Below are positions 1-45,017 of a DNA stretch of 64,000 nucleotides, piece after piece. Position 1 is the first letter of the stretch, and each line of letters starts with the position of its first letter. The translations under genes were made by a program, and so were the position numbers. The DNA is from Candidatus Poribacteria bacterium (GTDB lineage Bacteria; Poribacteria; WGA-4E; PCPOR2b): positions 4,128,001 to 4,192,000 of the forward strand of contig OZ220744.1 of the NCBI GenBank assembly GCA_965116925.1, written 5' to 3'. The notes under the pieces were generated by a model. That model was not told the DNA's origin, did no database searches, and saw nothing but the letters and a program-made list of their open reading frames with translations.

Positions 1-868
1 GACGAAGCGCATTGATGATGGTGCCCGGTTTGAAGACCTCGCCCGCCAGTTTGGCGACCACGGCTTCAAAGATATGGAGGTGCGCGAAGGAGACTACCTC
101 CGTAACTCCGAATTTGGCGGCTTGATTGGTGAGATTGAAACGGCGATGGGACGTTATACAGACAAGCAATGGAAGGCGATTTGTGATGCGATCTGGGAAG
201 GGGGACAGGATTCGGCGGTTACGGCGGAGGATGGTCCCCTCTTTGCGCGTGTCAGTACATTTGTTGAGTTGGCGAGGGATTTGAAATTGAGTTACGCCAT
301 GTCGCACTCGTGGCTCGGTGCGCCTGAAGACATTGAAGCGGACACGCAACAGATTATTCAAGCGAAAAAACTGGCATACTTACTGTGTCCAGCGGACGCA
401 CGGTTGCGGATTGTCGGGCTTGCACCTACGGGCGGGAAAACAGATCCGCAGGCTGCGGTTGCCAATGTTAAACGGTATCGGTCATTGTTACCAAACTGTC
501 CAATGGTCTTTGCGGTTGAAAATTCACGACAACCAGCAACCTTTACGCTCGATTTGGCGGTGGAGGGTGGTGCTTTGTTGACCTACGACGAGGCAAACAC
601 CTATCGCGACGATGGCACAACGGTCAACTCGCCGGAGGAATTCTGGAGCACTGTAAAAATGGAAGACCTGACGTCGGTGCATTTCAAGCAGAAAACGGCG
701 GACGGTGTTTTGACACAGGTCAGTGACGGATATGTTGATTTTGCAGCGATTGGCAAACGTTTGGTGGCAGGAGGTTATAAGGGTGACCTATTGCTCGAAA
801 ACACCCCAACAGACCAGCCTTTGGAAGATGCGGTTTCGAGCCGTGTATATCTTTCGAGCCTTTTATAA
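1..868 (+). CDS. Sugar-phosphate isomerase/epimerase-like TIM-barrel protein (5' truncated by window edge)
   Basis: Frame open from base 2; AVEN, VHFKQ, G-VDF and GY-G-LLLE motifs of the xylose isomerase/AP-endonuclease-2 barrel. Confidence 0.65.
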   Translation, partial: TKRIDDGARFEDLARQFGDHGFKDMEVREGDYLRNSEFGGLIGEIETAMGRYTDKQWKAICDAIWEGGQDSAVTAEDGPLFARVSTFVELARDLKLSYAMSHSWLGAPEDIEADTQQIIQAKKLAYLLCPADARLRIVGLAPTGGKTDPQAAVANVKRYRSLLPNCPMVFAVENSRQPATFTLDLAVEGGALLTYDEANTYRDDGTTVNSPEEFWSTVKMEDLTSVHFKQKTADGVLTQVSDGYVDFAAIGKRLVAGGYKGDLLLENTPTDQPLEDAVSSRVYLSSLL

Positions 869-14221: not shown

Positions 14222-15439
14222 CTACTCTATAATTTCCGTTACAACTCCCATGCCAATCTTTACTTCCATCTTCTTGATCTCGAACCGCGTGCCGATTGCT
14301 AGTGCCATCGGCACATCAAGCGAAATTTGCACGGTTGCATGTTCACCCGGATTGATAATCGCAACCTCCGACGAAAGATGGAGATGACCTGTAACGTCAA
14401 TTGTCCAGAGATGGATCTCCGGCTTATCATTCCCAACAAGGGGGATATGCGTTCCACACTCCTCTTGGGTCATCACGTAAACCGCCGCCACAAATTCGGT
14501 GTGCGACTTGATGCTCTTCGGTTGTGAAACAACCTGCCCCGGCGTAATCCACCCCATTTCCGCATCGACTCGGACCTCATCTTCTGTATTTTTACCCGCT
14601 TCATCACGGTTCACGCCAATCGAGGAGGCGGCGTCGGCGTGTCGCAGACCAACGCAGCGAGTCTTAATCCGATCCCCTTTGCCGACGACATCAATCGGGT
14701 GCCCCACCGCTAGACCGCCCTGAGCCATCTCACCGTACAGTGTCGAGGTGCCTTTGGGGCTGTCAATAACCTTACGGATCGGCATCAGCAAAGGCAATTC
14801 AAGTGAATTCAGCGGCTGCGGCATGCAACGATTCATCGCGAAGATGAGATCGACAATCGGTTTCCAGTGATCCGAATTAAGATTTTGTCCCTTATAGTTA
14901 CAGGCTTTCTCCGCGTCGCCAACGATGATGGGTGACTCTTCTTCCGCATAACCGCAATCCGTAAGGATCTCACGGATCTCCATCTCGCAAATCTCGATTA
15001 ATTCTAGATCCTTGACCTTCTCTGCCTTGTTCAGGAAGGTGACAACCGTGGGGACACGAACTTGACTAGCGAGCCGAATCTCGGCTTCTGCTTCTGCCGT
15101 TACACCTTCGACTGCGCTCACCACCAAAATCGCGCCACGAATCCCCGGCGAATCACCGATCAACATCTTGACGTTATCTCCATGACTCATGCCATCAAGA
15201 TGTGTGTAATGTCTACCACTTGTCTCATAATCAACCGCTTTATAACTGACGTAAGTCTGTAATCCTATTGAGTGATGCGTTGGTTGCTGCGCTTCAAAAT
15301 CATCCGCATCCATCTGGGTAGAGCCAATCCGTGAAACCACCTTGATTATTCCGGCAGCCAGCATCGTTTTACCGTGTCCCACCCCGCCAAGTGTGCAGAT
15401 TGTCAACCCTTGATGTCGGTATTGCCTTTTTTCATCCAT
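14222..15439 (-). CDS. Divergent EF-Tu-like protein with degenerate G motifs
   Basis: Colinear with EF-Tu (GHGKT, YET..RHYTH.D, GAILVVSA, FLNK, DVTG, G.GVVTEIIE); start MDEK after GAGGGG SD. Confidence 0.85.
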   Translation of the reverse strand: MDEKRQYRHQGLTICTLGGVGHGKTMLAAGIIKVVSRIGSTQMDADDFEAQQPTHHSIGLQTYVSYKAVDYETSGRHYTHLDGMSHGDNVKMLIGDSPGIRGAILVVSAVEGVTAEAEAEIRLASQVRVPTVVTFLNKAEKVKDLELIEICEMEIREILTDCGYAEEESPIIVGDAEKACNYKGQNLNSDHWKPIVDLIFAMNRCMPQPLNSLELPLLMPIRKVIDSPKGTSTLYGEMAQGGLAVGHPIDVVGKGDRIKTRCVGLRHADAASSIGVNRDEAGKNTEDEVRVDAEMGWITPGQVVSQPKSIKSHTEFVAAVYVMTQEECGTHIPLVGNDKPEIHLWTIDVTGHLHLSSEVAIINPGEHATVQISLDVPMALAIGTRFEIKKMEVKIGMGVVTEIIE

Positions 15440-15907
15440 CGCTTTCCCCTCTGACAGAAATTCTGTGAACTCACTGCCCACCTACTCACTGCTCCAGATT
15501 GAAGATTGGATTGAAAGATGGTATTTGGTATTTTACCATAGAGGAGAGGGCAGAGTCCATCAAAAGAAAAATGGGGTGCGGTGGATCATTAGAGAATTCA
15601 CCTAGATTTGTAGTAGTCTACACGGTAGCAGACACTTAGTGCCTATGCTGCTTGACACTGGCTAAAGCCTCGGCACCCGGCGAAATTTTACTTGCGAACC
15701 TGATACTCGCCTACCGTCACCCCAGCTATGACAGAATTAATCCAGATTTAATGAAAAAACTTGAGAACTCCTAGTGGGAATTTGTGTCTATAATTATAAC
15801 TATACTTGTGCTTATATCGTAATATGAGTAATGTGATCGCATTCGGGGCATTTAGTTTTCAGTTTTTTAACCGATTTTGACGGATAGATAGCAGATTGAC
15901 TCCTACA

Positions 15908-17423: not shown

Positions 17424-19661
17424 ATGCCAACGGATCGAAATCTTATTCATCAAACGCTCAAAGGCAATCTACGGGCTTTCGACACCTTGGTCCAGAAATA
17501 TCAGCCGGTGGTCTATGCCCGGGCGCGGCTTATCGTACAAAATCCGCACGATGCCGAAGATCTAACGCAAGAAGTCTTTATCAAAGCGTATCAAAATCTT
17601 CCAAAACTGCGCGATGCCAGTCGGTTCGCCGGTTGGCTATCGCGAATTGTGAAGAATGTCTGCGTGACATGGATCCACCAGCAGAAGGAAATATCAAAAT
17701 CTTGCCCGATAGACGCGGATCCAATTGCGAGTCTGTCTGCTGCTGAGGCGACGCCGGAACAATTCCTGATGAAAAAAGAGTTGAACCAGACAATCCTGAA
17801 GGCAATTAATTCACTGCCTGCTGTGGATGGGGCGGTCGCGCACGATTTCTACATTGACCACCTCAGCTATGATGAAATCTCAGAGGAACACGGATTGTCG
17901 CATCGTGCCATCGCTAGTCGACTGCATCGCGCCAAACAACGCATCGCTCAGAAAGTCAAGCATTCGTTCAGCGCGTTTGGTATTTTCTGGAAGGATTGGG
18001 GAACATCCATGCTAAAGGGGACGAAAATTATGTCAACCCTTTCGCGTGCTTGGTCTATCTCTTTCGCAATTCACCTCGGTTTTGCTAGTGTCATTGGAAG
18101 TGTCATTGGAGGGTATTTGGTAACACAGAACCAATCATTCAAGGAGTTGACAGGCGTTGAAATCCCTCAAACAGTGAATACGCCGCCCAAACCGCAAGTT
18201 CAGAAACCCGTCATCAAACTCGTTCAAAAGCCGGAGGTGCCAATTGAAAGCACGGTCACCGTTGAACCGGTTAAAGTCCAACAAAGAACGATGAATATGG
18301 CCATGATTGGGGCAAGTACTGTCCAACCGCAGACCATCTCCGCGTTCTCAAATCAAGCCTTGAAACTTAATGCCCCCCTCAACCCCAATGTGCCGGAGGT
18401 GGTCGACCCCAATGCACCTATGCCTCAGAGTGTAGCACCTACGGATGACCCCGCTTCTAATGCACCCGACGCGCTAACATTGTCTTCACCCGTCGTCATA
18501 GGCACAGGTAAAAACGGTGATCGCGTGAGCCGTGGGGTTGCTGGTTCTGGGGGTATTGGCACAGACAGTGGTAGCGGCGTTGAGCGTGGTGATTTCAGTT
18601 TAGGAAATGATGTGAATCAGGCCCGTACCAGAGGTCATGTTGGCATAGGTTCATTGGTAGGCACCCAAGGGGCAACTAACATTGATGACACGCTTTCCAA
18701 TGTCACCGAGAAGGTAGTATTGGGCGGGGGTGTGCCTGAACTTCCATCTGGAAGCCCCGGTGCTATTGTTGTGGGGCGTGGTCTAGATATGATGGGCCGC
18801 TTAAACCTTGCCCGCTTTGAAAATCCGCTTCACCCCTTTGGAGTTGTATGTGGCAGCGGCGTCGGATATTTCCGATTTGGGGCAGGTTTGTCCTATTTAG
18901 TACAATCACTGAATCAAAAGACTAAAATCAAGACCCAACTTGTTGAGGCAGTCCAACTCAAGGATGCGGCACTCTTTCAGACACCGATTCTTTTTATGGA
19001 ACCGATGCCCGGCGGCTCAAAGATAAGTTCAGAACACGAGAAGGAACTGTTCTACTCTCATGGCAATCCAATATGGAATACTGCGCGTAGTAAATACACG
19101 GATGCTGAAGTCCAAAGACTACGGGAGTATGTGATTAATCGTGGGGGATTCGTTTATATAGCGACGCATGGAAATACAGATAACGCAATGAAAGGGACAA
19201 GAAAGGTGTTGCGGGACCTCCTGCCAGAGCATCAACTTGGTCTTATTCCCAATGATCACCCGATTTACAACAGTTATTACTCGCTAAATGGTCCTTTGCG
19301 TTTTCCGCTGCGCAAGATCGGAGCTTTCGGAGCTACCATCTCTCTTCACTTTGGTCCTTACTCCGAGCTACAAGGTATCACGATTGATGGTCGTCTTGCT
19401 GTCTTGGTTGATACCGAGCAGATGATGCATGTGATCGATGGCAAAGTTCAGAAACCCTTCTACGGCAAGTTCCAAAATCAGAATCAGATTTTAGAGGAAT
19501 TTGCCCCCCACGCGGCGCGGCACATGATTAACATTGTGGTCTATGCCATCACACATGGGAATATTTCAGATTACTCCGGTTATGTGCCAGCAGATAAGCG
19601 AGAGCAGCAAAGATTTCCAACCCGTGCGCCGCAAGCCGCAGCAATTAGAGCGGTTGAATAA
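17424..19661 (+). CDS. ECF sigma factor fused to TM, Pro/Gly-rich linker and DUF4159-like domain (Cys form)
   Basis: DAEDLTQEVF, F.GWL.RI and SY.EI...SRLHRA sigma-2/4 motifs; C-terminal domain highly similar to the paralogs at 20059 and 42642; AGGAG SD. Confidence 0.88.
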   Translation: MPTDRNLIHQTLKGNLRAFDTLVQKYQPVVYARARLIVQNPHDAEDLTQEVFIKAYQNLPKLRDASRFAGWLSRIVKNVCVTWIHQQKEISKSCPIDADPIASLSAAEATPEQFLMKKELNQTILKAINSLPAVDGAVAHDFYIDHLSYDEISEEHGLSHRAIASRLHRAKQRIAQKVKHSFSAFGIFWKDWGTSMLKGTKIMSTLSRAWSISFAIHLGFASVIGSVIGGYLVTQNQSFKELTGVEIPQTVNTPPKPQVQKPVIKLVQKPEVPIESTVTVEPVKVQQRTMNMAMIGASTVQPQTISAFSNQALKLNAPLNPNVPEVVDPNAPMPQSVAPTDDPASNAPDALTLSSPVVIGTGKNGDRVSRGVAGSGGIGTDSGSGVERGDFSLGNDVNQARTRGHVGIGSLVGTQGATNIDDTLSNVTEKVVLGGGVPELPSGSPGAIVVGRGLDMMGRLNLARFENPLHPFGVVCGSGVGYFRFGAGLSYLVQSLNQKTKIKTQLVEAVQLKDAALFQTPILFMEPMPGGSKISSEHEKELFYSHGNPIWNTARSKYTDAEVQRLREYVINRGGFVYIATHGNTDNAMKGTRKVLRDLLPEHQLGLIPNDHPIYNSYYSLNGPLRFPLRKIGAFGATISLHFGPYSELQGITIDGRLAVLVDTEQMMHVIDGKVQKPFYGKFQNQNQILEEFAPHAARHMINIVVYAITHGNISDYSGYVPADKREQQRFPTRAPQAAAIRAVE

Positions 19662-19690: not shown

Positions 19691-20006
19691 TATAGTGAAT
19701 TCTAAAAATAATAGGACTTACGCACTTCAGTAGGGAACGCAGATCTGCGTTCCCTACGAACCCCTTATGGAATCTCTGTTGTAGTTACCCGATTCATCGG
19801 GCGTTGGGACGAGTGTGCAGAGGCGATAAATCGCCGAACTACAAAACGTTGAGCATTCAACTGCGTAACTCCTAAATAAATAAACATTTTCGCCCCTCGG
19901 TTTCGATCCCCCCGATAAATCGGGGTAAACTAATTATCGGGGCCGGTAGGTGCGGTTTTCAATCGCACCGGTTTGGAGTGTCTCAATAATTCTAAATCGG
20001 ACTTTA
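19691..20006 (-). mobile_element. Family B miniature element (degenerate) carrying a nested family A copy
   Basis: Ends match the reverse complement of the 45286 and 59250 elements (TATAGTGAATTC...; ...GTGTCTCAATAATTCTAAA). Confidence 0.7.
19712..19874 (+). mobile_element. 163-bp miniature element family A, copy 2
   Basis: TIR TAGGACTTACGCA...TGCGTAACTCCTA; AATAA direct repeat on both sides. Confidence 0.85.
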
Positions 20007-20058: not shown

Positions 20059-21669
20059 ATGAAATCTCACCACAAGTACCGCTTCTGGTTCGTTTCTGTA
20101 TTGGTCCATTTATGCCTTGCGATTGTCTTCAGTGTCGCCATCATCAATCAAACGACTCCGAGTGATGTTGATACTTTAGAAGTGAGTATTCTACAAGTTA
20201 AACCGGTGCCGCTTGTAAAGAAAACACCCCGTATAGAGGCACCTATTGTCACGCCGACACCAGTGCCTAAGTTTCAAATTGAACCTCAGTCAACGTCAGT
20301 ACAGACCCGAACGCTCACAACCCGTCAGGTGAGATCTACGTCCGTATCTGTACCGAAAGCCGCAGCGGTGGATGCCCCGGTATCTCAGTCTCCGGCACAA
20401 TCTGTGCGTGCAGAAATTTCTGTCCAAAGCGCATCTCAGGTCAATGACCGTCCCGCTCAATCACTTGCCACTGCTGTTGATCTCCCTGTTCAGTCGGATG
20501 CCCCGTTAGCGGCAGGATTGAGCGAGGGGAGTTCGCTCTCTGGCGCAGGCAGTCTTGGCGGAGGTAGTGGTAGTGGGGTTGGACGGGGTTCCTTCGGTTT
20601 AGGAGGTGGTGTGAGCCAAACCCCGACTAGAGGAGGAACGGGTTTAAGTTCGCTGGTCGGTGCTGAAGGCGCGTCTAACATAGACGACACACTTGCCAAC
20701 GTTACCGAAAAGGTAACGCTAGGGGGTGGTGTGCCTGAGCTTCCTGCTGGCAGTCCTGGTGCTATAGTTGTGGGTCGCGGTCGAGATATCATGGGTCGCT
20801 TAAACCTTGCTCGTTTTGAAGATCCGCTTCACCCAAGCGCAGATATATGAGGCAGCGGCGTCGGAAATTTCCGATTTGGGGCAGGTCTGTCCTATTTAGT
20901 ACAATCACTGAATCAAAAGACTAAAATCAAGACCCAACTTGTTGAAGCGGTCCACCTGAAAGATGCATCGTTCTTTCAGACACCGATTCTTTTTATGGAA
21001 CCGATACCCGGCGGCTCAAAGGTAACTCCAGAACATCGGAAGAGAGTGTACAATTCCCACAGGATTCCGATCTGGAATACTGCGCGTCCGGGTGGATTAA
21101 GTAAGTACACTGACGCTGAAGTCCAAAGATTGCGAGAATATGTGATCAATCGTGGCGGATTCCTCTATCTAGCAACGCACGGGAATGCGGATAACGCAAT
21201 GAAAGGGACAAGAAAGGTGCTGCGGGACCTCCTGCCAGAGCATCACCTCGGCTTTGTTCCAAATGATCACTCGATTTACAACGCCTATTACTCGCTAAAC
21301 GGTCCTTTGCGTTTTCCCCTGCGCACTATTGGGACTATCGGACATCTCATCCCTCTTCACTTTGGTCCCTATTCCGAATTGCAAGGTATCACGATTGATG
21401 GTCGTCTTGCTGTGTTAGTAGATACCGAGCAGATGATGCATGTGATTGATGGCAAAGTTCAAAGACCTTTCTACGGCAAGTTCCAAAATCAGAATCAGAT
21501 TTTAGAGGAGTTTGCACCCCACGCGGCGCGGCACCTAATCAATGTTGTCGTTTATGCTATCACACATGGGAACATTTCGGATTATAGCAACTACGTTCCT
21601 GAAACACTTAAAAACTCTGGTGATGATAGTTATCGTAAAAAAGCCCCAGTTGTCACACAGAAATTGTAA
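20059..21669 (+). CDS. Membrane-anchored DUF4159-like protein, probable selenoprotein (Sec codon TGA 20848-20850, codon 264 of 536)
   Basis: AAGGAGG SD; the two ORF-track halves share a frame and are joined by 48 open codons; the TGA aligns with Cys in the 17424 paralog. Confidence 0.85.
20851..20894 (+). promoter_or_regulatory. Candidate bacterial SECIS element
   Basis: TGGGGCAG-GT-CTGTCCTA hairpin with apical GU about 35 nt after the UGA, preceded by a TCGGAAATTTCCGA palindrome. Confidence 0.7.
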
Positions 21670-21801: not shown

Positions 21802-23484
21802 ATGATGAATTTAATCCGTTATACTTATCCCATTTTTTTTGGTGTATTTCTGTTCGCCTTTTTTATCGGTTGTGGTGATGATGATGACGAGGTTGTTGAC
21901 GTAGGTCCTGCGGTCGTATCAACGCCGGAGGGCGTGGTCAAAGGTACGATTGTAGATTTGGTAACAGAGCAGGGGATTGCGGGCATCCAAGTGACGTTGT
22001 CGTCGTCGAAAAAGTTACCGGGGGGAGATTTTGAACAGGAATCGATAGCGTCAGTCACGACGGATGGGAGTGGCAACTTCGTATTTGGCGAGTTGAAATC
22101 AGGCGAATATATAGTGAAGCTGAATGCCCCGGGTTACTTGGACCAACAAGCGTCGGTAACGGTGACACGTAAAGAGTCAGCGACGGTTCATTTTCGCCTT
22201 GAACCGGGTGTGAGGTTTAAGGGTACAGTCGTATCGGACGATGGAAATGCAGTCTCCAATGTTCTCATCACTCTGGGTGACCGTGCGTCGGTGACCAAGG
22301 GTGGTGGTCAATATGAGATATCGCCTGTATCGAAGGGCGTGTACAACTTGACAGCGGAAAAGCCGGGTTATCAGACGACGCATATACCGGGTCTAGTTGT
22401 AGGTGATAATGATATTTCCCAAAAGGTCACGATTCGTCGTCAAGTAAGGGGTCAGATAGTTTTCGCTCGTGGTGATGTAGCGGGCAAGGACTTTTTTGGT
22501 ATTTCAGTGATAAATGCGGACCGTACGGGTGAGAAGCCGCTGACGCACCTATTCGACGTTAATCCGTCGTGGTCGCCGGGTGGCAATGAAATAGTGTTTA
22601 GTCGTTCAGAAGCCAACCGTCCGTTCCAAATCTATATAATGGACAGCGGTGGTGGGAACGCCAGACCCATCAGTGGGGATCACTTCAATGATAGACATCC
22701 AGCGTGGTCACCCGATGGTCGTCGTCTAGCGTTTGTTCATGCACGTGCGTTGGGTCAACCTGCGGTTTACACGATGGATTCAAATGGAGACAATCGTGTT
22801 CGTCTTGCGGATTGCCATGCGGATTCCCGTCCAGCGTGGTCACCCGACGGTAGTCAGCTTATCTATAACCATGCGCTTAAGGAAGGGATTCGTAATCTTT
22901 TTGTGTTGGACATAGAGACATTTCTCGCCGCCAAGGAGGCACCTCCTACCCAAGTCATACCAGAACCGGAACCAGAACCGGAACCAGAGATAGTGCCGGA
23001 ACCAGAACCAGACCCTGAACCAGAGGTAGAACAAAAGCCGGAACCGGAGCCAGACCCGCATCAAACGCCGGATGGGGAGAAAGATAAACAGGAAGGTGAG
23101 GGTGATCCGCCTCAAGCACCGAGTGCCGATCCACCAGCCATAGAAGAGGGTATTCACCGTTTGACAACGAGTACGCACCACGATATCCACCCGGATTGGA
23201 GTCCAGATGGTTCAAAATTGGTGTTTACCAAGGAGAGTGCGCCGCTGAACGCTGCGGTGTATGTTCTGGATCTGTTTTCGCTGGTTCAGACCCGGTTGAC
23301 GGGTGAGGAGGGTTACAACGGGTATCCGTGTTGGTCTACCGATGGGACAAAGATAATCTTCAGCAGTAACCGCAACGGTAGTTTGGGTATCTGGATGATG
23401 GATGCCGATGGTAGTAATACCGCCCTTATTTTTGATGAATTGGGACAGGATGATATTATCAGCCAGCAGGCATGGCGTGAGTAA
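21802..23484 (+). CDS. Lipoprotein with carboxypeptidase-regulatory-like domains, TolB-like PD40 propeller and (PE)n insert, copy 1
   Basis: Lipobox FFIGC; G.V.D..T and APGY/KPGY beta-sandwich motifs; PxWSPDG repeats. Confidence 0.88.
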   Translation: MMNLIRYTYPIFFGVFLFAFFIGCGDDDDEVVDVGPAVVSTPEGVVKGTIVDLVTEQGIAGIQVTLSSSKKLPGGDFEQESIASVTTDGSGNFVFGELKSGEYIVKLNAPGYLDQQASVTVTRKESATVHFRLEPGVRFKGTVVSDDGNAVSNVLITLGDRASVTKGGGQYEISPVSKGVYNLTAEKPGYQTTHIPGLVVGDNDISQKVTIRRQVRGQIVFARGDVAGKDFFGISVINADRTGEKPLTHLFDVNPSWSPGGNEIVFSRSEANRPFQIYIMDSGGGNARPISGDHFNDRHPAWSPDGRRLAFVHARALGQPAVYTMDSNGDNRVRLADCHADSRPAWSPDGSQLIYNHALKEGIRNLFVLDIETFLAAKEAPPTQVIPEPEPEPEPEIVPEPEPDPEPEVEQKPEPEPDPHQTPDGEKDKQEGEGDPPQAPSADPPAIEEGIHRLTTSTHHDIHPDWSPDGSKLVFTKESAPLNAAVYVLDLFSLVQTRLTGEEGYNGYPCWSTDGTKIIFSSNRNGSLGIWMMDADGSNTALIFDELGQDDIISQQAWRE

Positions 23485-30033: not shown

Positions 30034-30972
30034 ACCCAAGTTGCTAGTTATTGAAAATCCATGGGTTTTCCGTTAAACTTGAGGGGATTGACTCATACCC
30101 CCTCAAAAGGAGAAACCCATGGACCTACAAATTGTAACCATTTTCTATCTCTGTGACAAGCTGTTAGAAGCACTTAACTCAAAAACCTCTCCACAGGCGC
30201 AGATGACTGACGCCGAAGTCATGACCACCGGGGTGGTCGCTGCGTTGTTTTTCGGTGGTAACTTCCAAGTGACTTGTGACTTTCTACACACTCATGGCTA
30301 TATCCCCAATATGCTGTCAAAAAGTCGTTTCAATCGACGGTTGCATCGGATTAAACCGATGTTCATCACATTGTTCAAAATCTTAGCCGAAAGTTATGTA
30401 AAACTCAATCAACAGCAGATTTATGCGATAGATACACTGCCTATTGCGGTCTGTGACAATATCCGCATTAGTCGGTCAAAACTGTATACCGATGAGGCAT
30501 TTCGTGGGTATCAAGCGTCCAAGCGTCGGTACTTCTATGGCTTGAAAGTTCACTTGTTAGTGACAGCGAGCCAACAGCCTGTTGAGTTTTTTCTAACGCC
30601 AGCAAGCATCAGTGATGTCGAGGGATTACAGTATTTTGATTTTGACTTGCCACCGGGCAGTTGTGTCTACGGGGATAAAGCATACAATAACTATGAGATA
30701 GAGGATATATTGGCAACCATTGGAGTGGACCTCAAGCCGACACGCAAACAGAATTCCAAGCGACCTTATCCACAGTGGGAGACCTATGTGGCATCTTGCC
30801 ATCGTAAGTCTGTCGAGACCGCTGGCAGTTTAATTGAGCGATTGCTGCCTCGTTCGATTCATGCTGTAACACAACAAGGATTTGAATTAAAAGTGGTCTT
30901 GTTTGTATTAGCAAGCAGTATATATCAACTTTAACTCCAACCAACTACTCAATTATAGGTAGCAACTTGGGT
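30034..30972 (+). mobile_element. IS982 family insertion sequence
   Basis: TIR ACCCAAGTTGCTA...TAGCAACTTGGGT; flanking AT-rich direct repeat of about 8 bp (TATTTATA-like). Confidence 0.9.
30119..30934 (+). CDS. IS982 family DDE transposase
   Basis: SRFNRR, IDT.P, YFYGLKVH, GDKAY and R..VET motifs. Confidence 0.92.
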   Translation: MDLQIVTIFYLCDKLLEALNSKTSPQAQMTDAEVMTTGVVAALFFGGNFQVTCDFLHTHGYIPNMLSKSRFNRRLHRIKPMFITLFKILAESYVKLNQQQIYAIDTLPIAVCDNIRISRSKLYTDEAFRGYQASKRRYFYGLKVHLLVTASQQPVEFFLTPASISDVEGLQYFDFDLPPGSCVYGDKAYNNYEIEDILATIGVDLKPTRKQNSKRPYPQWETYVASCHRKSVETAGSLIERLLPRSIHAVTQQGFELKVVLFVLASSIYQL

Positions 30973-35423: not shown

Positions 35424-35656
35424 TATTTCAGGCTTCGGCGGGATGTCAGTCTTGGCACAAAGATTGCGTATTACTATTGTAATCACATTTGCCTCCAAAA
35501 ATTAATAGCCGGGTCAGTTTTGGGAATTGTGGTTTCCCTAGGTATTTTTCATTCGTTTCGAGGTCCGACTGGCACTCGCCTCGCCTATCAACTGGAATGC
35601 TTCCGTTGAAACGACATTTCCATCACCTGACCCGGCTTTTTTATTACGGATCCACG

Positions 35657-36553
35657 ATGAATCCATTCATTCAAATCGCTCAAGGTGTTATTGGAGCGAT
35701 TCTTATATCTGCCTTCTTCATTCTCAGATCAAGTTTCGGTGAAGCACGGCATACGCTTAGCATCATCGGTGCTATCATTATCTTTATCGCAAGTGGCTAC
35801 ATTCTGCGAACACGGTTAATCCGATGGGGGAGCCGGCAGGTCTGGCTCAAATACCATCAAAGGCTCGCATCGTTAGGATTATCGCTTGTTCTCATCCACT
35901 CAGCAGCCCAACCGCTCGTTTGGCATTCGTGGTTGGCGTTTACGTTAGCACTACTCAATCTTGGCACGGGTGTCGCGGTCAGTTTCACCACACATCGCGC
36001 ACGGCGGATTCTTCTCCGCTGCCATCTGGCACTTGCACCAATCTTGCTGCTTTCCGTTGTCCTACATGGTAGAGAAAAGTTAGACCACGATGAATTCTTT
36101 CCTTTGACTGAGGTTCACGACATCCCATGTGCGAAATGCCATACGTCGGAGAAACTGCTATTTACGATTGATCCACACTTTCAGAGCGATTTAGATAGTG
36201 GAGGGATTGTCTCAGAGGACTTGCAGTGGGAGTTTAATCTGCATGGGACTTCCCTCTCTCGACAGACAACGATTTCAACAAAAGAGACGGATAATCGCTG
36301 GCTGGTAACCGATGAAAAAAACGAGGGTGAATATACAGTCAAGAAAGCGGACGATCGGCTAAGTGTCCATACAGATGCTGTGTACGAGGCTTATACCTGT
36401 CTCACCTGTCATGTTCACAATACCCCGGAGATCCAATTTGACCACGAAAGTCATGGGGTCAAATCCTATAATGCCTGCCTCAACTGCCATCAGACTGTTA
36501 TCAATGGGGTAAAATACGGAACTCGAAAGGCGAATTGGGAGTATAATCCGTGA
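35657..36553 (+). CDS. Membrane protein with C-terminal multiheme c-type cytochrome region
   Basis: Several TM helices containing His; CAKCH, CLTCH and CLNCH motifs. Confidence 0.8.
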   Translation: MNPFIQIAQGVIGAILISAFFILRSSFGEARHTLSIIGAIIIFIASGYILRTRLIRWGSRQVWLKYHQRLASLGLSLVLIHSAAQPLVWHSWLAFTLALLNLGTGVAVSFTTHRARRILLRCHLALAPILLLSVVLHGREKLDHDEFFPLTEVHDIPCAKCHTSEKLLFTIDPHFQSDLDSGGIVSEDLQWEFNLHGTSLSRQTTISTKETDNRWLVTDEKNEGEYTVKKADDRLSVHTDAVYEAYTCLTCHVHNTPEIQFDHESHGVKSYNACLNCHQTVINGVKYGTRKANWEYNP

Positions 36554-37300: not shown

Positions 37301-38842
37301 CTATTCAACCGCTCCAATTGCTGCGGCTTGCGGCGCACGAGTTGGGATTCTTTGCTGCGCTTGCTTATCTGCCGGCACATAGCCGGAGTAATCTGAAATT
37401 TGACCGTGCGTTAGTGCATAGATGGCAACATTGGTCATAAAACGGTAGACGCCGGGCGAGTAGCGCACCCGACGGCTTGGCAGACTGATTGACTCCATCG
37501 CACACATATAGTCTCGACGAATGATCAGCACAGAAAGTTTGTCGCCGATAAAAATGCCTTCAAGAAAATTCCGTGATAGATTATAAGCAGGGCGTCCACT
37601 CGTTAAAAAAAAACCGATTGTCCTACCGGGATGGTAAATGTCAAAGCCGATGGGTGGTCCACCCATCTGATAGAAGTTGTGATAAATTTCATGGCTGTTG
37701 GGGATACGTCCCACATGATATTCTGGCATGATGTGCCGCATATTAGTCAGAAATAGACGGGTCATTGATTGGTCAGCAGCATGGGTACCACAGTCATCAA
37801 AAATGAGGAACCCTTCTTTTTCAACCAGATAGCGCCGCAACGAGACCGCTTCTAATCGAGAGAATTGACTACTCTTGATACTGCGAAGCATTCGCCCGGT
37901 GTCCAATGCTCTTACACCTTTTGCTTTAGTAAGAGCGGGATTATGTCCAGTCATGACGAGAATCGGTGATTTCATCACATTGGCGTCAGTCAACTTTAGT
38001 GCTCCGCCCTCGACGTTCATGTCTGTTTTAATTTTCGTCCGTTCGTTCAACCACTTTGCCCACGCGTTCAACGAAGACGCATCTGCCCACCAATCAGAGA
38101 GGTCATGGCGAAGGCGCGTAAAACGAAAGATCCCACGAATATCACGACCTCTACCAACAACGCGGCCTCCCGGCTCGCCGCGGGGCAGGGGTGGCACTTC
38201 AAGATTACCAAGCATAACGCCATCAACTACCCCGTCCAAGGCGTCCCCGATGGCTCCAACCTCCTTGACCATCGCAAGTTCCAACGGCAACTTGAACCCA
38301 TCAGTGATCCTGACCTGCACAGTCCCCCCAGACGACATTCCACGACCACTGCCTCCAATCCCACGACTCATGCGCCCACCATTTTTACCTGTGCCTATGA
38401 CGACAAATGAAGATAATGCCAGCGCATCAGAAATAGGGGCATCTGTATGTGTTACGCCCTTAGGAATAAGTGTATTGGAGACCACTTTTGGCACATTGGG
38501 GTTGAGGGGGGCATTAAGTTTCAAGGCTTGATTTGAAAACGTGGAGACGGTCTGCGGTTGGACAGTGGCTGTACGAACGCCAGCCGCATTTGTCGTTCTC
38601 GGTTGGGTTTTAACCGGTTCAACGATGACCGTGTTTTTGACTGGCACCTCTGGCTTTTGAACGGGTTTGATGACGGGTTTCCGAACTTGGGGTTTGGGTG
38701 GCGGATTCGCTGGTTGCAAAACTTCAATGCCTATCAAATCCTTAAATGATTGGGTTTGTGTTACTAGATACCCTCCAATAATAGCAGCAAGACACAGATG
38801 GATTGCTAAAGAGATAAACCAAGAACGCGAAACGGTGGACAT
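37301..38842 (-). CDS. Membrane-anchored DUF4159-like protein (DW/TGH/DDC type)
   Basis: N-terminal TM and Pro-rich linker; SDWWAD, P.LVMTGH, GFLIFDDCG, HEIYH.FY and LEGI motifs. Confidence 0.8.
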   Translation of the reverse strand: MSTVSRSWFISLAIHLCLAAIIGGYLVTQTQSFKDLIGIEVLQPANPPPKPQVRKPVIKPVQKPEVPVKNTVIVEPVKTQPRTTNAAGVRTATVQPQTVSTFSNQALKLNAPLNPNVPKVVSNTLIPKGVTHTDAPISDALALSSFVVIGTGKNGGRMSRGIGGSGRGMSSGGTVQVRITDGFKLPLELAMVKEVGAIGDALDGVVDGVMLGNLEVPPLPRGEPGGRVVGRGRDIRGIFRFTRLRHDLSDWWADASSLNAWAKWLNERTKIKTDMNVEGGALKLTDANVMKSPILVMTGHNPALTKAKGVRALDTGRMLRSIKSSQFSRLEAVSLRRYLVEKEGFLIFDDCGTHAADQSMTRLFLTNMRHIMPEYHVGRIPNSHEIYHNFYQMGGPPIGFDIYHPGRTIGFFLTSGRPAYNLSRNFLEGIFIGDKLSVLIIRRDYMCAMESISLPSRRVRYSPGVYRFMTNVAIYALTHGQISDYSGYVPADKQAQQRIPTRAPQAAAIGAVE

Positions 38843-39023: not shown

Positions 39024-40706
39024 TCATTCACGCCATGCCTGCTGGCTGATAATATCATCCTGCCCCAATTCATCGAAAATAAGGGCTGTATTGCTACCGT
39101 CGGCATCCATCATCCAGATACCCAAACTACCGTTGCGGTCACTGCTGAAGATTATCTTCGTCCCATCGGTAGACCAACACGGATACCCGTTGTAACCGAC
39201 CTCGCCCGTCAGGCGGGTTTGAACCAGCGAAAACAGATCTAGAACATACACCGCAGCGTTCAGCGGCGCGCTTTCCTTGGTAAACACCAATTTCGACCCG
39301 TCTGGACTCCAATCCGGGTGGATATCGTGGTGTGCACTAATTGTCAAACGTTGAATCCCTTCTTCGAGTGCTGGTGGATCGGCACTCGGTGCTTGGGGTG
39401 GGTCACCTTCACCTTCCTGTTTATCTTGCTCATCATCCGGCGTTTGATGAGGATCCGGCTCCGGTTCCGGCTTTTGGGGTGGGTCCGGTTCCGGCTCAGG
39501 CTCCGGTTCCGGCTCTGCTTCGGGTTCCGGTTCCGGCTCCGGTTCTGGTATGACTTGTGTTGGCGGTGCCTCCTTGGCGGCGAGAAATGTCTCAATATCC
39601 ACCACAAAAAGATTTCGTATCCCTTCGTTCAGAGCATGGTTATAGACGAGTTGAGTCCCATCGGGCGACCACGCAGGTCGAGAATCTGCGTGGCAGTCGG
39701 AAAGCCTGACACGATTGTCTCCGTTCACATTCATAGTGTAAATTGCAGGTTGACCCAACGCACGCGCATGAACAAATGCTAGACGACGACCATCGGGTGA
39801 CCACGCTGGATGACGATCATTAAAATGGTCTCCGCTGAGTGGCATCGCATTACCACCACGATTATCCATAATATAGATTTGTAGCGGACGATTGTTTTCT
39901 GAACGACTGAACGCTATTTCCATACCGTTAGGGGACCACGACGGGTTGACATCAAACACATGGGTCAACGCCTTTTCTCCATTCCGATCCGCGTTAATCA
40001 CTGAAATACCAAAAAAGTCATTACCCGCTACATTGCCACGCGCAAAAACTATCTGACCCCTTACTTGACGACGAATCGTGACCTTTTGGGAAATATCATT
40101 ATCACCTACAACTAGACCCGGTATATGCGTCGTCTGATAACCCGGCTTTTCCGCTGTCAAGTTGTACACGCCCTTCGATACAGGCGATATCTCATATTGA
40201 CCACCACCCTTGGTCACCGACGCACGGTCACCCAGAGTGATGAGAACATTGGAAACTGCATTGCCATCGTCCGATACCACTGTACCCTTAAACCTCACAC
40301 CCGGTTCAAGGCGAAAATGAACCGTCGCTGACTCTTTACGCGTCACCGTTACCGACGCTTGCTGGTCCAAGTAACCGGGCGCATAGATCTGTATTATATA
40401 GTCACCCGCTTTCAGTTCGCCAAAAAGGAAGTTACCACTCCCATCCGTCGTGACTGACGCTATCGATTCCTGTTCAAAATCTCCCCCCGGCAACTTTTTC
40501 GACGACGACAACGTCACTTGGATACCCCCAATCCCTTGCTCCGTTACCAAGTCTACAATCGTACCTTTGACCACGCCCTCCGGCGTTGATACTACCACAG
40601 GACCTACATCTACAACATCATCTTCGTCATCTCCACAACCTAATAAAAATAAAAATAGCGTCAAAGCAACAAAGCTGAAATAGGCGTAACGGATTAGGTT
40701 CGACAT
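39024..40706 (-). CDS. TolB-like PD40 lipoprotein, copy 2
   Basis: Lipobox LLGC; highly similar to 21802; start MSNLIRY. Confidence 0.88.
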   Translation of the reverse strand: MSNLIRYAYFSFVALTLFLFLLGCGDDEDDVVDVGPVVVSTPEGVVKGTIVDLVTEQGIGGIQVTLSSSKKLPGGDFEQESIASVTTDGSGNFLFGELKAGDYIIQIYAPGYLDQQASVTVTRKESATVHFRLEPGVRFKGTVVSDDGNAVSNVLITLGDRASVTKGGGQYEISPVSKGVYNLTAEKPGYQTTHIPGLVVGDNDISQKVTIRRQVRGQIVFARGNVAGNDFFGISVINADRNGEKALTHVFDVNPSWSPNGMEIAFSRSENNRPLQIYIMDNRGGNAMPLSGDHFNDRHPAWSPDGRRLAFVHARALGQPAIYTMNVNGDNRVRLSDCHADSRPAWSPDGTQLVYNHALNEGIRNLFVVDIETFLAAKEAPPTQVIPEPEPEPEPEAEPEPEPEPEPDPPQKPEPEPDPHQTPDDEQDKQEGEGDPPQAPSADPPALEEGIQRLTISAHHDIHPDWSPDGSKLVFTKESAPLNAAVYVLDLFSLVQTRLTGEVGYNGYPCWSTDGTKIIFSSDRNGSLGIWMMDADGSNTALIFDELGQDDIISQQAWRE

Positions 40707-40852: not shown

Positions 40853-41015
40853 TAGGACTCACGCAATTGAACGGTCAAAGCCCTGTAGTTCGGCGATTCA
40901 TCGCCGCTGGACACCGTTGCCAACGCCCGATGAATCGGGCAACTACAGCAGAGGCTCCATAAGGAGTCCGTAGGGAACGCAGATCTGCGTTCCCTACGGA
41001 AGTGCGTAACTCCTA
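40853..41015 (-). mobile_element. 163-bp miniature element family A, copy 3
   Basis: Same TIRs and hairpins in reverse orientation; no clear TSD. Confidence 0.85.
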
Positions 41016-41022
41016 CAGAAAT

Positions 41023-42642
41023 TTACAATTTCTGTATGACAACTGGTGCTTTTTTACGATAACTATCATCACCAGAGTTTTTAAGTGTTTCGGGAACGTA
41101 GTTGCTATAATCCGAAATATTCCCATGGGTGATGGCATAGACCACAATGTTAATCATGTGCCGCGCCGCGTGGGGTGCAAATTCTTCTAGGACTTGATTT
41201 TGATTGTACAAGTGACCATAGAACGGTTTCTGAACTTTGCCATCGATCACATGCATCATCTGCTCGGTATCTACTAACACAGCAAGACGACCATCAATCG
41301 TGATACCTTGCAATTCGGAATAGGGACCAAAGTGAAGGGGGATGGTTATTCCGCCATACACGACATGCCGCAAGGGAAAACGCAAAGGACCGTTTAGCGA
41401 GTAATAGGTGTTGTAAACCGGGTGATCATTCGGAACAAAGCCAAGTGGATGCTCTGGCAGGAGATCTCGCAGCACCTTTCTTGTCCCTTTCAATGCGTTA
41501 TCTGTATTTCCATGCGTTGCTAGATAGAGGAATCCGCCACGATTGATTACATATTCTCGCAATCTTTGGACTTCAACATCAGTGTATTTACTCAATCCGC
41601 TCGGACGCCTCGTATTCCAGATCGGAATGCTGTGGGAATTGAATACCCGCTTCTTGTGTTCTGGACTTATCCGTGAGCCACCTGATACCGGTTCCATAAA
41701 AAGAATCGGCGTCTGAAAGAACGATGCATCCTTCAGGTGGACCGCTTCAACAAGTTGGGTCTTGATTTTAGTCTTTTGATTCAGTGATTGTACTAAATAG
41801 GACAGACCTGCCCCAAATCGGAAATTTCCGACTCCACTGTTTCATATATCTGCGCTTGGGTGAAGCGGATCTTCAAAACGAGCAAGGTTTAAGCGACCCA
41901 TGATATCTCGACCGCGACCCACAATTATAGCACCAGGACTGCCAGCAGGAAGTTCAGGCACTTCTCCTCCTAGCGTTACTTTGTCGGCGACATTGGCAAG
42001 TGTATCGTCGATGTTAGACGCGCCTTCAGCACCGACCAGCGAACCGAGACCCGTGCCTCCTCTGGTCGGGGTTTGGCTCACACCACCTCCTAAACCGAAG
42101 GAACCCCGCCCAACACCGCTACCACTACCTTCGCCAAGACTGCCTGTGCCGGAAAGCGAACTGTTTCCGCTCAGTCCCGCAGCTAACGGGGCATCCGACT
42201 GAACCGGGAGATCAACAGCAGTGGCAAGTGAGTGGGCGGGACGGTCATTGGCGCGAAAAGATTGAGAAGCCCCTTGGACAGAAATTTCTGCACGCACAGA
42301 TTGTGCCGGAGACTGAGATACCGGGGCATCCACCGCTGTGGCTTTCGGCACAGATACAGAAGTTGATTTCACCGGATGGGGTGTAAAAGCCCGGGTCTGT
42401 ACCGATGCTGACAGACGCTCGATTTGAAAATTAGGCGTGGGCGTAGGTACGATGGAAGGGGCTACTATGCGTGGGGTTTTCTCCACAGGCGGCACCGGTT
42501 TAACTTTGAGAATGCTCACTTCTAAAGCATCGACATCGCTCCGAATAGTTTGGTTGACGATGATAACGCTGAGAACCATCGCTAGGCATAGATGGACCAA
42601 TAGAGAAACGCACCAGAAACGGTACTTGTAATGAGATTTCAT
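41023..42642 (-). CDS. Membrane-anchored DUF4159-like protein, probable selenoprotein (TGA at 41844-41842, codon 267 of 539)
   Basis: Same SD and start as 20059; HPSADI-TGA-NSGVGNFRF in frame with 41023..41697. Confidence 0.85.
41798..41841 (-). promoter_or_regulatory. Candidate bacterial SECIS element
   Basis: Hairpins identical to those in 20851-20894. Confidence 0.7.
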
Positions 42643-43343
42643 GAGGGTAACCTCCTTAAAGCGAATAATTGGCTTTTGACATACTCCCACATGTGAGCGT
42701 GCCAGTTCCGGTTTGCCCGAAAGGGGCGTTACCGAACCGTGAGTCCACGATTCTGTGAGTGCTGAAACAGCACAACAGAAGCATGACATCGGGATTTGTA
42801 AAGTCCCAAGCGCATGTGAGATTCCGCTATTAACAACACTTACTACCCGAAGAGGATTCAGCAACATCAATTTACATCTACTAGCCCCAAGGTAGTCTTA
42901 CGGTGTCTCGCTCAATGGACAATACTTCGTCCATTTTCTATATTTATACTGCTTTAGGCGGTTCAGAATGAAAGGTTTTTGTAACAGGTCATTTCTACCT
43001 AACCCCAATGATTGGGAAGGATGGCAGCTCATTGATTGGTCAGCCACCACTCATACACTGTTACTTGAAAAAGCATTGTAGCATGTTTTCGTTAGAAATA
43101 CAATTTTTTAATAGATAGCATGGTTAAGCGCGCAACATCCCCTTGAATCCCCGGAACATTACACTATACGGAAGTTGCTACTTAAATGCTAAATTGAATC
43201 AATCACCGCCTACAATATAAACCTCCTTGCATTCATTTGCAACCAGTTTTTTGAGGGGTATGGACATATCATGTCCATACTCCAAAAGTAACTGGAATTT
43301 TTGTGTGATTGGTTGAAGCAATTTTTTTATGGCGCACTGGGTT

Positions 43344-45017
43344 TTACTCACGCCATGCGTGTTGGCTGATAATATCATCCTGACTTAACTCATCAAAAAC
43401 AAGAGCGGTATTGCTGCCATCTGCATCCATGATCCAAATGCCAAAACTTCCATTACGATCACTGCTGAAAACAATCTTTGTACCATCAGGAGACCAACAC
43501 GGATAGCCGTTGTAACCTTCCGCACCGGTCAATCGGATTTGGCTTAGCGAAAATAGATCTACGACATACACCGCAGCATCGAACGGGGCGGTTTCTTTAG
43601 TAAAGACTAATTTTGAACCGTCTGGACTCCAATCCGGGTGGATATCGTGGTTTGCACTAATTGTCAAACGTTGAATCCCTTCTTCGAGTGCTGGTAGATC
43701 GGCGATCGGTGCCTGAGGTGGATCGCCCTCCCCCTCCTTCTTCTCTTCACCATCTGGGGTTTGATGGGGATCCGGCTCCGGCTCTGGCTTTTGGGGTATC
43801 TCCGGTTCCGGTTCTGGCTCCGGTACTATCTCTGGTTCCGGTTCCGGCTTCGGTTCTGGTTCCGCTTTCGTAGGGGGCGCGTCTTTGGCGGCGAGAAATG
43901 CCTCGATGTCCACCACAAAAAGATTCCGTTTGCCTCCCTTCAGAAGTGCATAGGTATAGACGATCTGAGTGCCATCAGGTGACCATGTAGGCCTAGCGTC
44001 TACATCGGAGTCGGCAAGTCGAACCCGATTCCCTCCGTTCACATTCATGGTATAAATTGCTGGTTGCCCCAAGGCTCGCGCGTGAACAAAGGCGATGCGG
44101 CGACCATCAGGAGACCAAGCCGGGTGTCGATCGTTGAAATGGTCCCCGCTGATGGATCTGGCACTGCCGCCGCGGTTATCCATAATGTAAATTTGTGGTA
44201 GCCCCCTGTTTTCTGAACGACTGAAAACAATTTCTCTACCATTAGGGGACCAGGTAGGCTGTAGGTCAGAAAGGTCTGTTAGAGACTTTTCGCCTGTACG
44301 GTCAGCGTTAATCGTTGAAATCCCAAAGAAGTCTTTGCCAACAACATCGGCGCGTACGAAGACAATCTGTCCCGTTACTTTGCGTCGAATAGAGATCCTT
44401 CGCGAGATGTCGCTATCACCGACAGTTATACTCGATATGTGTGTTGTGTGATAGCCCGGCTTTTCCGCAATCAAGTTGTATTGTCCCTTGGAGACCGGGG
44501 AAATTTCATATTGTCCACCACCATTCGTTACTGCCGCGCGTTCACCTAAAGAGATAAGAACATTTGCAACGACATTGCCATCGTCAGAGACCACGATGCC
44601 CTTAAACCTGACACCGGGTTCAACAAGAAAATTAACAATTGCAGGCTCTTTGCGAGTGACTTCCACCGGTGCTTGTTGACCCAGATAACCACGGGGATTG
44701 ATTTCCAAGACATATTCACCGGTTTTTAGTTCTTCAAATATGAAGCTCCCACTAGAATTGGTGGCTGTTGAAGCGACATTTTCCCGCTCAATATCGCCCC
44801 CTGGGAGTTTCTTTTGTGCAACCAATATAACTTGGGCATCTATAACGCCCTGCTGTGTGACCAGATCTACAACGGTTCCTTTGATAACCCCTTCCGGTGT
44901 TGCCACAACCCGGGGCCCTATATCATCAACAACTTCGTCATCACCACAGCCGATAAAAAACACAAACAGCGTCAAAGCAAAAAGACCGAGATAGGAGTAA
45001 CGGGTTAAGTTCGCCAT
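43344..45017 (-). CDS. TolB-like PD40 lipoprotein, copy 3 (more diverged)
   Basis: Lipobox FFIGC; same architecture as copies 1 and 2. Confidence 0.88.
   Translation of the reverse strand: MANLTRYSYLGLFALTLFVFFIGCGDDEVVDDIGPRVVATPEGVIKGTVVDLVTQQGVIDAQVILVAQKKLPGGDIERENVASTATNSSGSFIFEELKTGEYVLEINPRGYLGQQAPVEVTRKEPAIVNFLVEPGVRFKGIVVSDDGNVVANVLISLGERAAVTNGGGQYEISPVSKGQYNLIAEKPGYHTTHISSITVGDSDISRRISIRRKVTGQIVFVRADVVGKDFFGISTINADRTGEKSLTDLSDLQPTWSPNGREIVFSRSENRGLPQIYIMDNRGGSARSISGDHFNDRHPAWSPDGRRIAFVHARALGQPAIYTMNVNGGNRVRLADSDVDARPTWSPDGTQIVYTYALLKGGKRNLFVVDIEAFLAAKDAPPTKAEPEPKPEPEPEIVPEPEPEPEIPQKPEPEPDPHQTPDGEEKKEGEGDPPQAPIADLPALEEGIQRLTISANHDIHPDWSPDGSKLVFTKETAPFDAAVYVVDLFSLSQIRLTGAEGYNGYPCWSPDGTKIVFSSDRNGSFGIWIMDADGSNTALVFDELSQDDIISQHAWRE

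Follow-up and report, generated by a model that had tools for sequence, protein, structure and literature searches.

Results

A gene with an in-frame UGA and its surroundings

The DNA analysed here, a 64-kb stretch hereafter called the window, carries on its reverse strand (42642-41023) a single frame of 539 codons which starts with ATG at 42642 and ends with TAA at 41025-41023. The lone in-frame TGA of this gene, at 41844-41842, is codon 267, and 272 open codons lie beyond it. The original prediction had drawn attention to this TGA, to the open half downstream and to a linker of 48 codons. We confirmed the frame, found no further stop in the 272 codons and counted 48 codons from the UGA to the next ATG, which encodes M316. 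A first copy of the gene in the window (paralog A) had been described as differing from the target gene by many substitutions and several small in-frame indels. The substitutions were indeed numerous (87% DNA identity and 86% protein identity over 536 aligned codons), but only a single 3-codon indel was found. The features of the locus are summarized in Table 1.

Between positions 15400 and 46000 of the window, a cassette of anchor-DUF4159 and lipoprotein genes is duplicated in inverted orientation; its arms match at 80-89% and lie approximately 15-22 kb apart. This arrangement provides a setting for gene conversion. An intergenic element of 163 nt that contains palindromes is present at 19712-19874, 3' of paralog C, and at 40853-41015, 3' of the target gene. 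The two elements are 85% alike, and we take them to resemble a repeat of the REP/MITE type. The window also harbours a divergent EF-Tu-like gene (14222-15481, reverse strand) that scores under every EF-Tu cut-off, a membrane-protein gene (35489-36553, forward strand) whose product contains three CxxCH motifs and lacks a Pfam match at E 1e-4, and a 271-aa ORF presumably similar to IS transposases (30119-30934, forward strand).

Table 1. Features of the target gene and related genes in the window (positions are those of the window).
Feature	Position	Strand	Basis or conservation
Target gene, 539 aa with UGA read as Sec	41023..42642	-	
Strong Shine-Dalgarno sequence TAAGGAGGT, 5' of ATG 42642	42650..42658	-	Sequence
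Predicted single N-terminal membrane helix, residues ~9-29; S13-X3-H17-X6-L24	42556..42618	-	Sequence
Linker, residues ~30-235, Pro/Ser/Thr-rich, then Gly-rich; predicted flexible and extracytoplasmic	41938..42555	-	Composition; inference
DUF4159-type domain, residues ~236-518, spanning the UGA	41089..41937	-	Pfam, AF2, 4i66 match
In-frame TGA, codon 267, predicted selenocysteine	41842..41844	-	71 TGA, 13 TGT, 2 TGC among 86 distinct copies
Hairpin 1 (+10..+25), predicted spacer hairpin	41817..41832	-	5 stem pairs kept in 70-71/71 TGA and 15/15 Cys copies; MFE fold
Hairpin 2 (+28..+43), predicted SECIS, GGUC loop at +34..+37	41799..41814	-	Shares GCAGGUCUG with E. coli fdhF
E317, conserved in the Sec/Cys subfamily	41692..41694	-	FME motif in 86/86 copies
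H377; Cys (DDCG) in DWW-type paralogs	41512..41514	-	84/86 copies by pattern
H464; Cys (DYMC) in DWW-type paralogs	41251..41253	-	86/86 copies
Lipoprotein gene downstream of target: lipobox-like Cys, two carboxypeptidase-regulatory-like domains, TolB-like PD40 propeller	39024..40706	-	
Lipoprotein homologs	43344-45017; 21802-23484	-; +	
DWW-type DUF4159 paralog, same anchor; Cys/Cys instead of His/His, without Sec	37301..38842	-	
Paralog A (first copy), TGA at 20848-20850	20059..21669	+	
Paralog C, ECF sigma factor fused to anchor-linker-DUF4159 module; Cys TGT at Sec column (18849-18851)	17424..19661	+	

Architecture and fold of the protein

DUF4159 (PF13709) was the sole Pfam domain detected in the target protein, with 65 bits against a cut-off of 25.9 and a match to profile positions 64-201 of 202. 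The AF2 model of the domain, obtained from a 70-row alignment with Cys in place of Sec, displayed a pLDDT of 84 and a pTM of 0.86. In this model an insertion after strand 1 comprises two short strands with U267 between them, and strand 3 ends at M316. The closest known structure was that of Hoch_4089 (PDB 4i66; Foldseek E 1.6e-8; VIA-align Z 18.6, rmsd 3.0, 190 aligned), with the next best match at Z 9.2. Further fold neighbours were ThuA-like proteins and class I GATases with Z 7-9 and rmsd 3.3-4.4, values near the background reported for the tool. As for the N-terminal helix, an SxxxH pattern was found in 70 of the 72 copies without a sigma factor; 20 of the 586 single N-terminal hydrophobic helices of the genome carry the pattern.

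Selenocysteine machinery and the genetic code

The genome (G000) contains selA, selB, selC and selD. The genes selA (607 bits) and selB (373 bits) are clustered with that of tRNA-Sec(UCA) at C1:2.374-2.377 Mb, and selD (369 bits), which has an in-frame TGA of its own, is located at C1:6018631(+). Of the 61 genomes in the relatives set, 60 contain selB. In G000, TGA functions as a regular stop codon and terminates 484 of 1611 long frames. The tRNA-Trp has the anticodon CCA, and the sole tRNA with a UCA anticodon was called as tRNA-Sec.

A crude genome-wide scan for in-frame UGAs gave 50 candidates including fdhA. As both DUF4159 copies and selD were missed, we regarded the scan as insensitive and used it solely as a source of hairpins for comparison. 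More in-frame UGAs with hairpins were noticed at C1:2541663(-), 4721121(-), 519567(-), 150426(-), 996697(+), 985341(+), 4898682(+) and 2421017(+), in Cys-type contexts (fdhA, UxxC-like motifs and an HMA-like motif). Judging from its sequence, the genome looks rich in selenoproteins.

Distribution of the family and the codon at the Sec column

We searched 176 genomes of the Poribacteria phylum and found the family in 78: in family f1, 22 of the 28 genomes besides G000, and in family f2, 55 of 112. The family was not found in the other families of the phylum represented among the 176 genomes. The 102 matches comprised 85 with exactly one TGA, 15 that were open and two cut by contig ends. Of the 78 genomes with the family, 75 contain a TGA copy; the remaining three contain either a copy with Cys alone or one truncated at the end of a contig. 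The Sec column could be compared in 86 distinct Poribacteria copies, down to 57% identity, and was occupied by TGA in 71, TGT in 13 and TGC in two; these counts include kin and are thus not independent, and three partial matches without the column are not part of them. A Trp codon, TAA, TAG or any other residue was not found at this column in the 86 copies. The sharing of the TGA across genomes is far beyond chance.

Of 74 related loci, 72 derived from Candidatus Poribacteria and two from an uncultured bacterium. The protein database search spanned lengths of 296-944 aa. All three deeper homologs from metagenomes (L147, L148 and L166; approximately 50% identity) have TGA, and a deep database protein (P0048) has Cys at the Sec column. 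A number of entries hold the two halves separately (P0038-P0047, P0136, P0158, P0182, P0049 and P0050).

Fusions to a sigma factor, as in paralog C, were found with TGA in one genome copy and in nine database proteins which end exactly at the UGA (P0039-P0047), and with Cys (TGT) in 13 copies. A quick tree was computed from 70 rows after masking the site and leaves out 27 of the 40 far-clade copies. In it, the 13 sigma-fused TGT copies, joined by one database row, formed a clade (SH-aLRT 98) within the TGA copies, beside the lone sigma-fused TGA copy (85). The Sec label requires three changes on this tree. We infer that the sigma-fused Cys form was derived from a Sec form.

Several other members of the family were noted. 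One UGA copy (L099, G173:C2:414716-415882) has a broken 5' half with 103 open codons upstream, and its genome contains a second, intact copy. A third subfamily (P0058, P0063, P0067, P0069, P0073 and P0078) has the same anchor with neither His/His nor Cys/Cys, and one tested member also carries an ECF sigma fusion. In P0101 and P0107, a DWW-type DUF4159 follows an N-terminal region, which in P0101 weakly matches the DNA polymerase III beta-clamp (PF00712; 24.9 bits, cut-off 24.4).

Selection on both halves and probable gene conversion around the UGA

The dN/dS ratios between the target gene and paralog A (Nei-Gojobori) were 0.25 for codons 1-266, 0.15 for the linker (codons 268-315) and 0.26 for codons 316-539, the linker value coming from only four synonymous and two non-synonymous differences in 48 codons. 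When the target gene was compared with 25 closer TGA copies, the pooled pN/pS was 0.06 before the UGA, 0.18 in the linker and 0.19 after it. As the ratios are low on either side of the UGA, both halves of the gene are under purifying selection, in agreement with the original prediction.

On the other hand, a segment of 193 nt around the UGA contains just four differences between the target gene and paralog A, compared with a dS of 0.35-0.42 in other parts of the gene. Over the 30 codons before the UGA, within-genome paralogs in G000, G001 and G005 are 99-100% identical, and the target gene and its orthologs 94-96%. Identity between paralogs A and C is 98% over codons +1..30. These patterns point to gene conversion between the window copies around the UGA. 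The target gene and paralog A are therefore not independent witnesses, and the case rests on other genomes. It had been argued from the two copies that a shared pseudogene or the same sequencing error was unlikely; that conclusion stands on the cross-genome data, but the reasoning from two copies is weak, as they are not independent at this site.

Contigs from four public runs, which pool paralogs and relatives and of which one run possibly represents the source sample, cover positions 41842-41844. The sole variant listed was TGA to TGT, in two contigs of one run that also bear further changes of the Cys-paralog type; TGG was not listed in any contig of the four runs. Contigs from RNA libraries (X6 and X10) contain parts of the target gene, which does not in itself demonstrate transcription.

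Two predicted hairpins downstream of the UGA

The sequence following the UGA is predicted to fold into two consecutive hairpins. Every one of the 71 TGA copies has all six base pairs and the GGUC loop of hairpin 2. At six codons for which 4-6 synonymous choices exist (+8 and +10..+14), no alternative codon was seen in the 71 TGA copies, and the remaining 23 columns with as many choices displayed 5-46 alternatives. The 15-nt hairpin was intact in all 71 TGA copies and in 4 of 15 Cys copies. Taking into account that 6 of the 15 Cys copies have a GGUU loop, the decay of the hairpin in Cys copies is mild, and it is partly blurred by the probable conversion between paralogs A and C. Compensatory double changes in the stems were not seen among the copies compared.

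The bSECIS consensus is a stem of 4-16 bp with a loop of 3-9 nt beginning with G, a spacing of 16-37 nt and an energy of -7.5 kcal/mol or lower (PMC13188914, section 5). Hairpin 2, with a 6-bp stem, a 4-nt loop with G first and a distance of 33 nt from the UGA, fits this model in geometry. The folding energies were -5.9 kcal/mol for hairpin 2 alone, -12.5 for both hairpins and -15.7 for 50 nt, against the model threshold of -7.5. In the three window copies the 50-nt region gave z-scores of -2.1, -1.2 and -1.6, and E. coli fdhF scored -0.1; folding energy by itself does not mark a SECIS. In the deep homologs L147, L148 and L166, one extra codon after the UGA brings the motif to +37, the loop is GGUU, and the two-hairpin fold was not predicted (z = +0.8 for L148). 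In E. coli fdhF, according to its record, the GGUC loop lies at +19, as it does in fdhA of this genome. Rfam gave no match at gathering score within the 64-kb window.

SelB carrying Sec-tRNA is predicted, with high confidence, to bind hairpin 2 and insert Sec at codon 267. Hairpin 1 might take up 16 nt and thereby shift the loop from +34 towards the fdhF-type distance of +19, a role whose chances we put at roughly even.

Reading of the UGA

Based on the alternation of TGA and Cys codons, the presence of selA, selB, selC and selD, the frozen GGUC hairpin and the purifying selection, UGA codon 267 very probably encodes selenocysteine, and the gene is a single intact frame. Decoding of the UGA as Trp or another residue, through an altered code or leaky read-through, could find a hint in the distant DWW-type paralogs, which align Trp at this position in 28 of 70 rows, in one alignment and across an indel. 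Among the 86 close copies, however, all 15 sense codons are Cys and none is TGG; together with the frequent use of TGA as a stop and the anticodons described above, this makes such decoding very improbable. We consider it just as improbable that the UGA is a true stop in a conserved two-piece gene with re-initiation at M316. Databases do carry the halves as separate predicted proteins, but an SD-like word precedes the ATG of M316 in 0 of 71 TGA copies, the 48 intervening codons are under purifying selection and the UGA is never replaced by TAA or TAG in the 86 copies. Moreover, since M316 closes core strand 3 in the AF2 model, re-initiation there would leave strand 2 and helix 1 untranslated. 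In favour of a shared nonsense pseudogene or a sequencing error, gene conversion would be able to copy a nonsense codon from one window copy to the other. The probability of either is negligible: the TGA is shared by 75 of 78 genomes belonging to two families, dN/dS is 0.15-0.26 and the codon recurs in contigs of four runs. We regard both as refuted by the distribution of the TGA across genomes and the purifying selection.

Predicted reactive site

With UGA 267 read as selenocysteine, conserved residues of the domain can be considered together. Among 70 aligned rows, positions 377 and 464 were His/His in 34, all from the Sec/Cys subfamily, Cys/Cys in 27, which are the DWW-type paralogs, and other combinations in nine; a mixed His and Cys pair was not found. 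The two positions change in concert between Cys/Cys and His/His, and Sec and Glu are new; the most plausible interpretation is that a metal site has been remodelled, the nearness of the residues being taken from topology. In the model, U267 at the tip of the beta-hairpin, E317, H377 and H464 follow strands 1, 3, 4 and 5, respectively, and would lie at the C-terminal edge of the sheet. They may together bind a metal, a proposal we make tentatively and at somewhat less than even odds, in which the selenolate of U267 would act as a soft, reactive ligand.

Alternatively, Sec may have been inserted as a single-residue redox or oxidant-sensing centre, in which case the forms fused to ECF sigma factors would be one-component sensors. 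A redox role is assumed for the majority of catalogued selenoproteins (PMC13188914, section 7), and the occurrence of sigma fusions with both TGA and Cys would suit a sensor. The fold, however, is not thioredoxin-like, there is no CxxU or UxxC motif, and the exchange of Cys/Cys for His/His is left without explanation. A second Cys is absent in 70 of 71 TGA copies, when the last 200 residues before the UGA and everything after it are considered, so that none is available for a CxxU redox cycle in these 70. We therefore consider a redox centre unlikely, though deserving of attention. Somewhat less likely still is a hydrolase of amidase or peptidase type with a class I GATase-like fold, in which Sec would serve as the nucleophile, His as the base and Glu as the acid. 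U, H and E are each conserved, ThuA-like proteins and class I GATases are structural neighbours, and Pfam places DUF4159 in that clan on the basis of structure (PMC4702930). Those neighbours, though, have Z-scores close to the background of the tool, and U267 sits in an insertion after strand 1, not after strand 4. In class I GATases, the nucleophilic Cys is found at an elbow after the central strand, strand 4. In the target domain, with equivalence inferred from topology, H377 follows strand 4 and the only Cys/Sec follows strand 1.

Neighbouring genes and resemblance to TonB/TolA

A lipoprotein gene lies 3' of the Sec gene in 21 of the 24 close-clade loci with downstream DNA, and in both deep loci (33-36% identity). 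It was absent beside all 41 far-clade loci, of which 38 have rhodanese, PTPS and FolE genes instead. In the far clade (L088-L130), the genes 3' of the Sec gene are those for rhodanese, tandem PTPS, FolE and an SDR protein in 36-38 loci, an order that is probably synteny among kin.

TonB and TolA have an SHLS motif, of which SxxxH is the conserved half (PMC12215075). In the target helix S13, H17 and L24 are present and the last Ser is missing. The genome contains two MotA/ExbB genes, and no exbB/tolQ gene adjoins the target gene. By analogy, the SxxxH helix could conceivably couple the protein to an ExbB/TolQ-type motor, with the downstream TolB-like lipoprotein as its partner, as TolA with TolB; we regard this as unlikely on balance, but worth stating.

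Discussion

Overall, the target gene is, with high probability, predicted to encode a Sec-decoded single-pass membrane protein, in which the DUF4159 domain has a likely Sec-Glu-His-His reactive site outside the cytoplasm, with Sec most likely a metal ligand. A far more speculative picture, which we think improbable as a whole, is that of a PMF-coupled, TolA-like envelope selenoprotein with a TolB-like lipoprotein partner and a two-hairpin, long-spaced SECIS. An ancestral Cys/Cys pair would have become His/His and Sec would have been gained on an inserted hairpin, giving a Se-His-His-Glu metal site, and fusion of the module to an ECF sigma factor would have produced a Sec-containing transcription regulator.

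If the Sec reading is true, a membrane-anchored family of unknown function, outside the thioredoxin-type redox enzymes, joins the bacterial selenoproteome, and the predicted selenium-histidine-glutamate site would be the working centre of the family. Since Sec marks a working residue, it provides a concrete active-site hypothesis for DUF4159, whose function is unknown. Gene callers routinely split the DUF4159 Sec gene in two. The natural Sec and Cys forms within one genome permit a direct comparison of the two residues, the loop at +34 with a conserved hairpin before it is a testable case for the reach of SelB, and the UGA-bearing sigma fusions imply a selenocysteine-containing sigma factor.

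Neither DUF4159 nor PF13709 is mentioned in a 2026 review (PMC13188914), including its Table 1 of 119 selenoprotein families, and the word 'sigma' is absent from that review. NCBIfam 20.0 gave no match for the target at E 0.01. Judged by this table and by NCBIfam 20.0, the DUF4159 selenoprotein family is apparently uncatalogued. With subscription journals outside the scope of the search, no literature linking DUF4159 with a selenoprotein was found, and the Pfam paper PMC4702930 was the only one found for DUF4159, PF13709, Hoch_4089 or 4i66. Papers on Poribacteria together with selenocysteine or selenoproteins included nothing on the topic by title, and none were found on selenoproteins together with ECF sigma factors and UGA.

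The gene can be compared with several known systems. As in E. coli fdhF, a stem-loop that contains the same 9-mer, GCAGGUCUG, and has a GGUC loop lies 3' of an in-frame UGA, and SelA, SelB, SelC and SelD are present. In contrast to fdhF, the loop is at +34 and not at +19, an extra hairpin lies in between, the fold is unrelated and the target is not a molybdopterin enzyme. With DUF4159 proteins as represented by Hoch_4089, the target shares a fold and a Pfam score over the cut-off, but it differs in its membrane anchor, its long linker and the beta-hairpin insertion that carries Sec/Cys. The sister DWW subfamily of DUF4159 has Cys/Cys where the target has His/His. A catalogued predicted selenoprotein labelled glutamine amidotransferase belongs, as far as its entry indicates, to the clan in which Pfam places DUF4159; the target differs from it in having the motif D-I-U-[GN]-S-G and a membrane anchor, and no NCBIfam match. 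Finally, although the target has no TonB or TolA C-terminal domain (Pfam detects only DUF4159), lacks the last Ser of the motif, and has exbB/tolQ-type genes elsewhere in its genome, it shares with TonB and TolA, as described in PMC12215075, a single N-terminal helix with Ser-X3-His-X6-Leu, a long low-complexity linker and a C-terminal globular domain, and, as in the TolA-TolB pair, a gene for a TolB-like propeller adjoins it.
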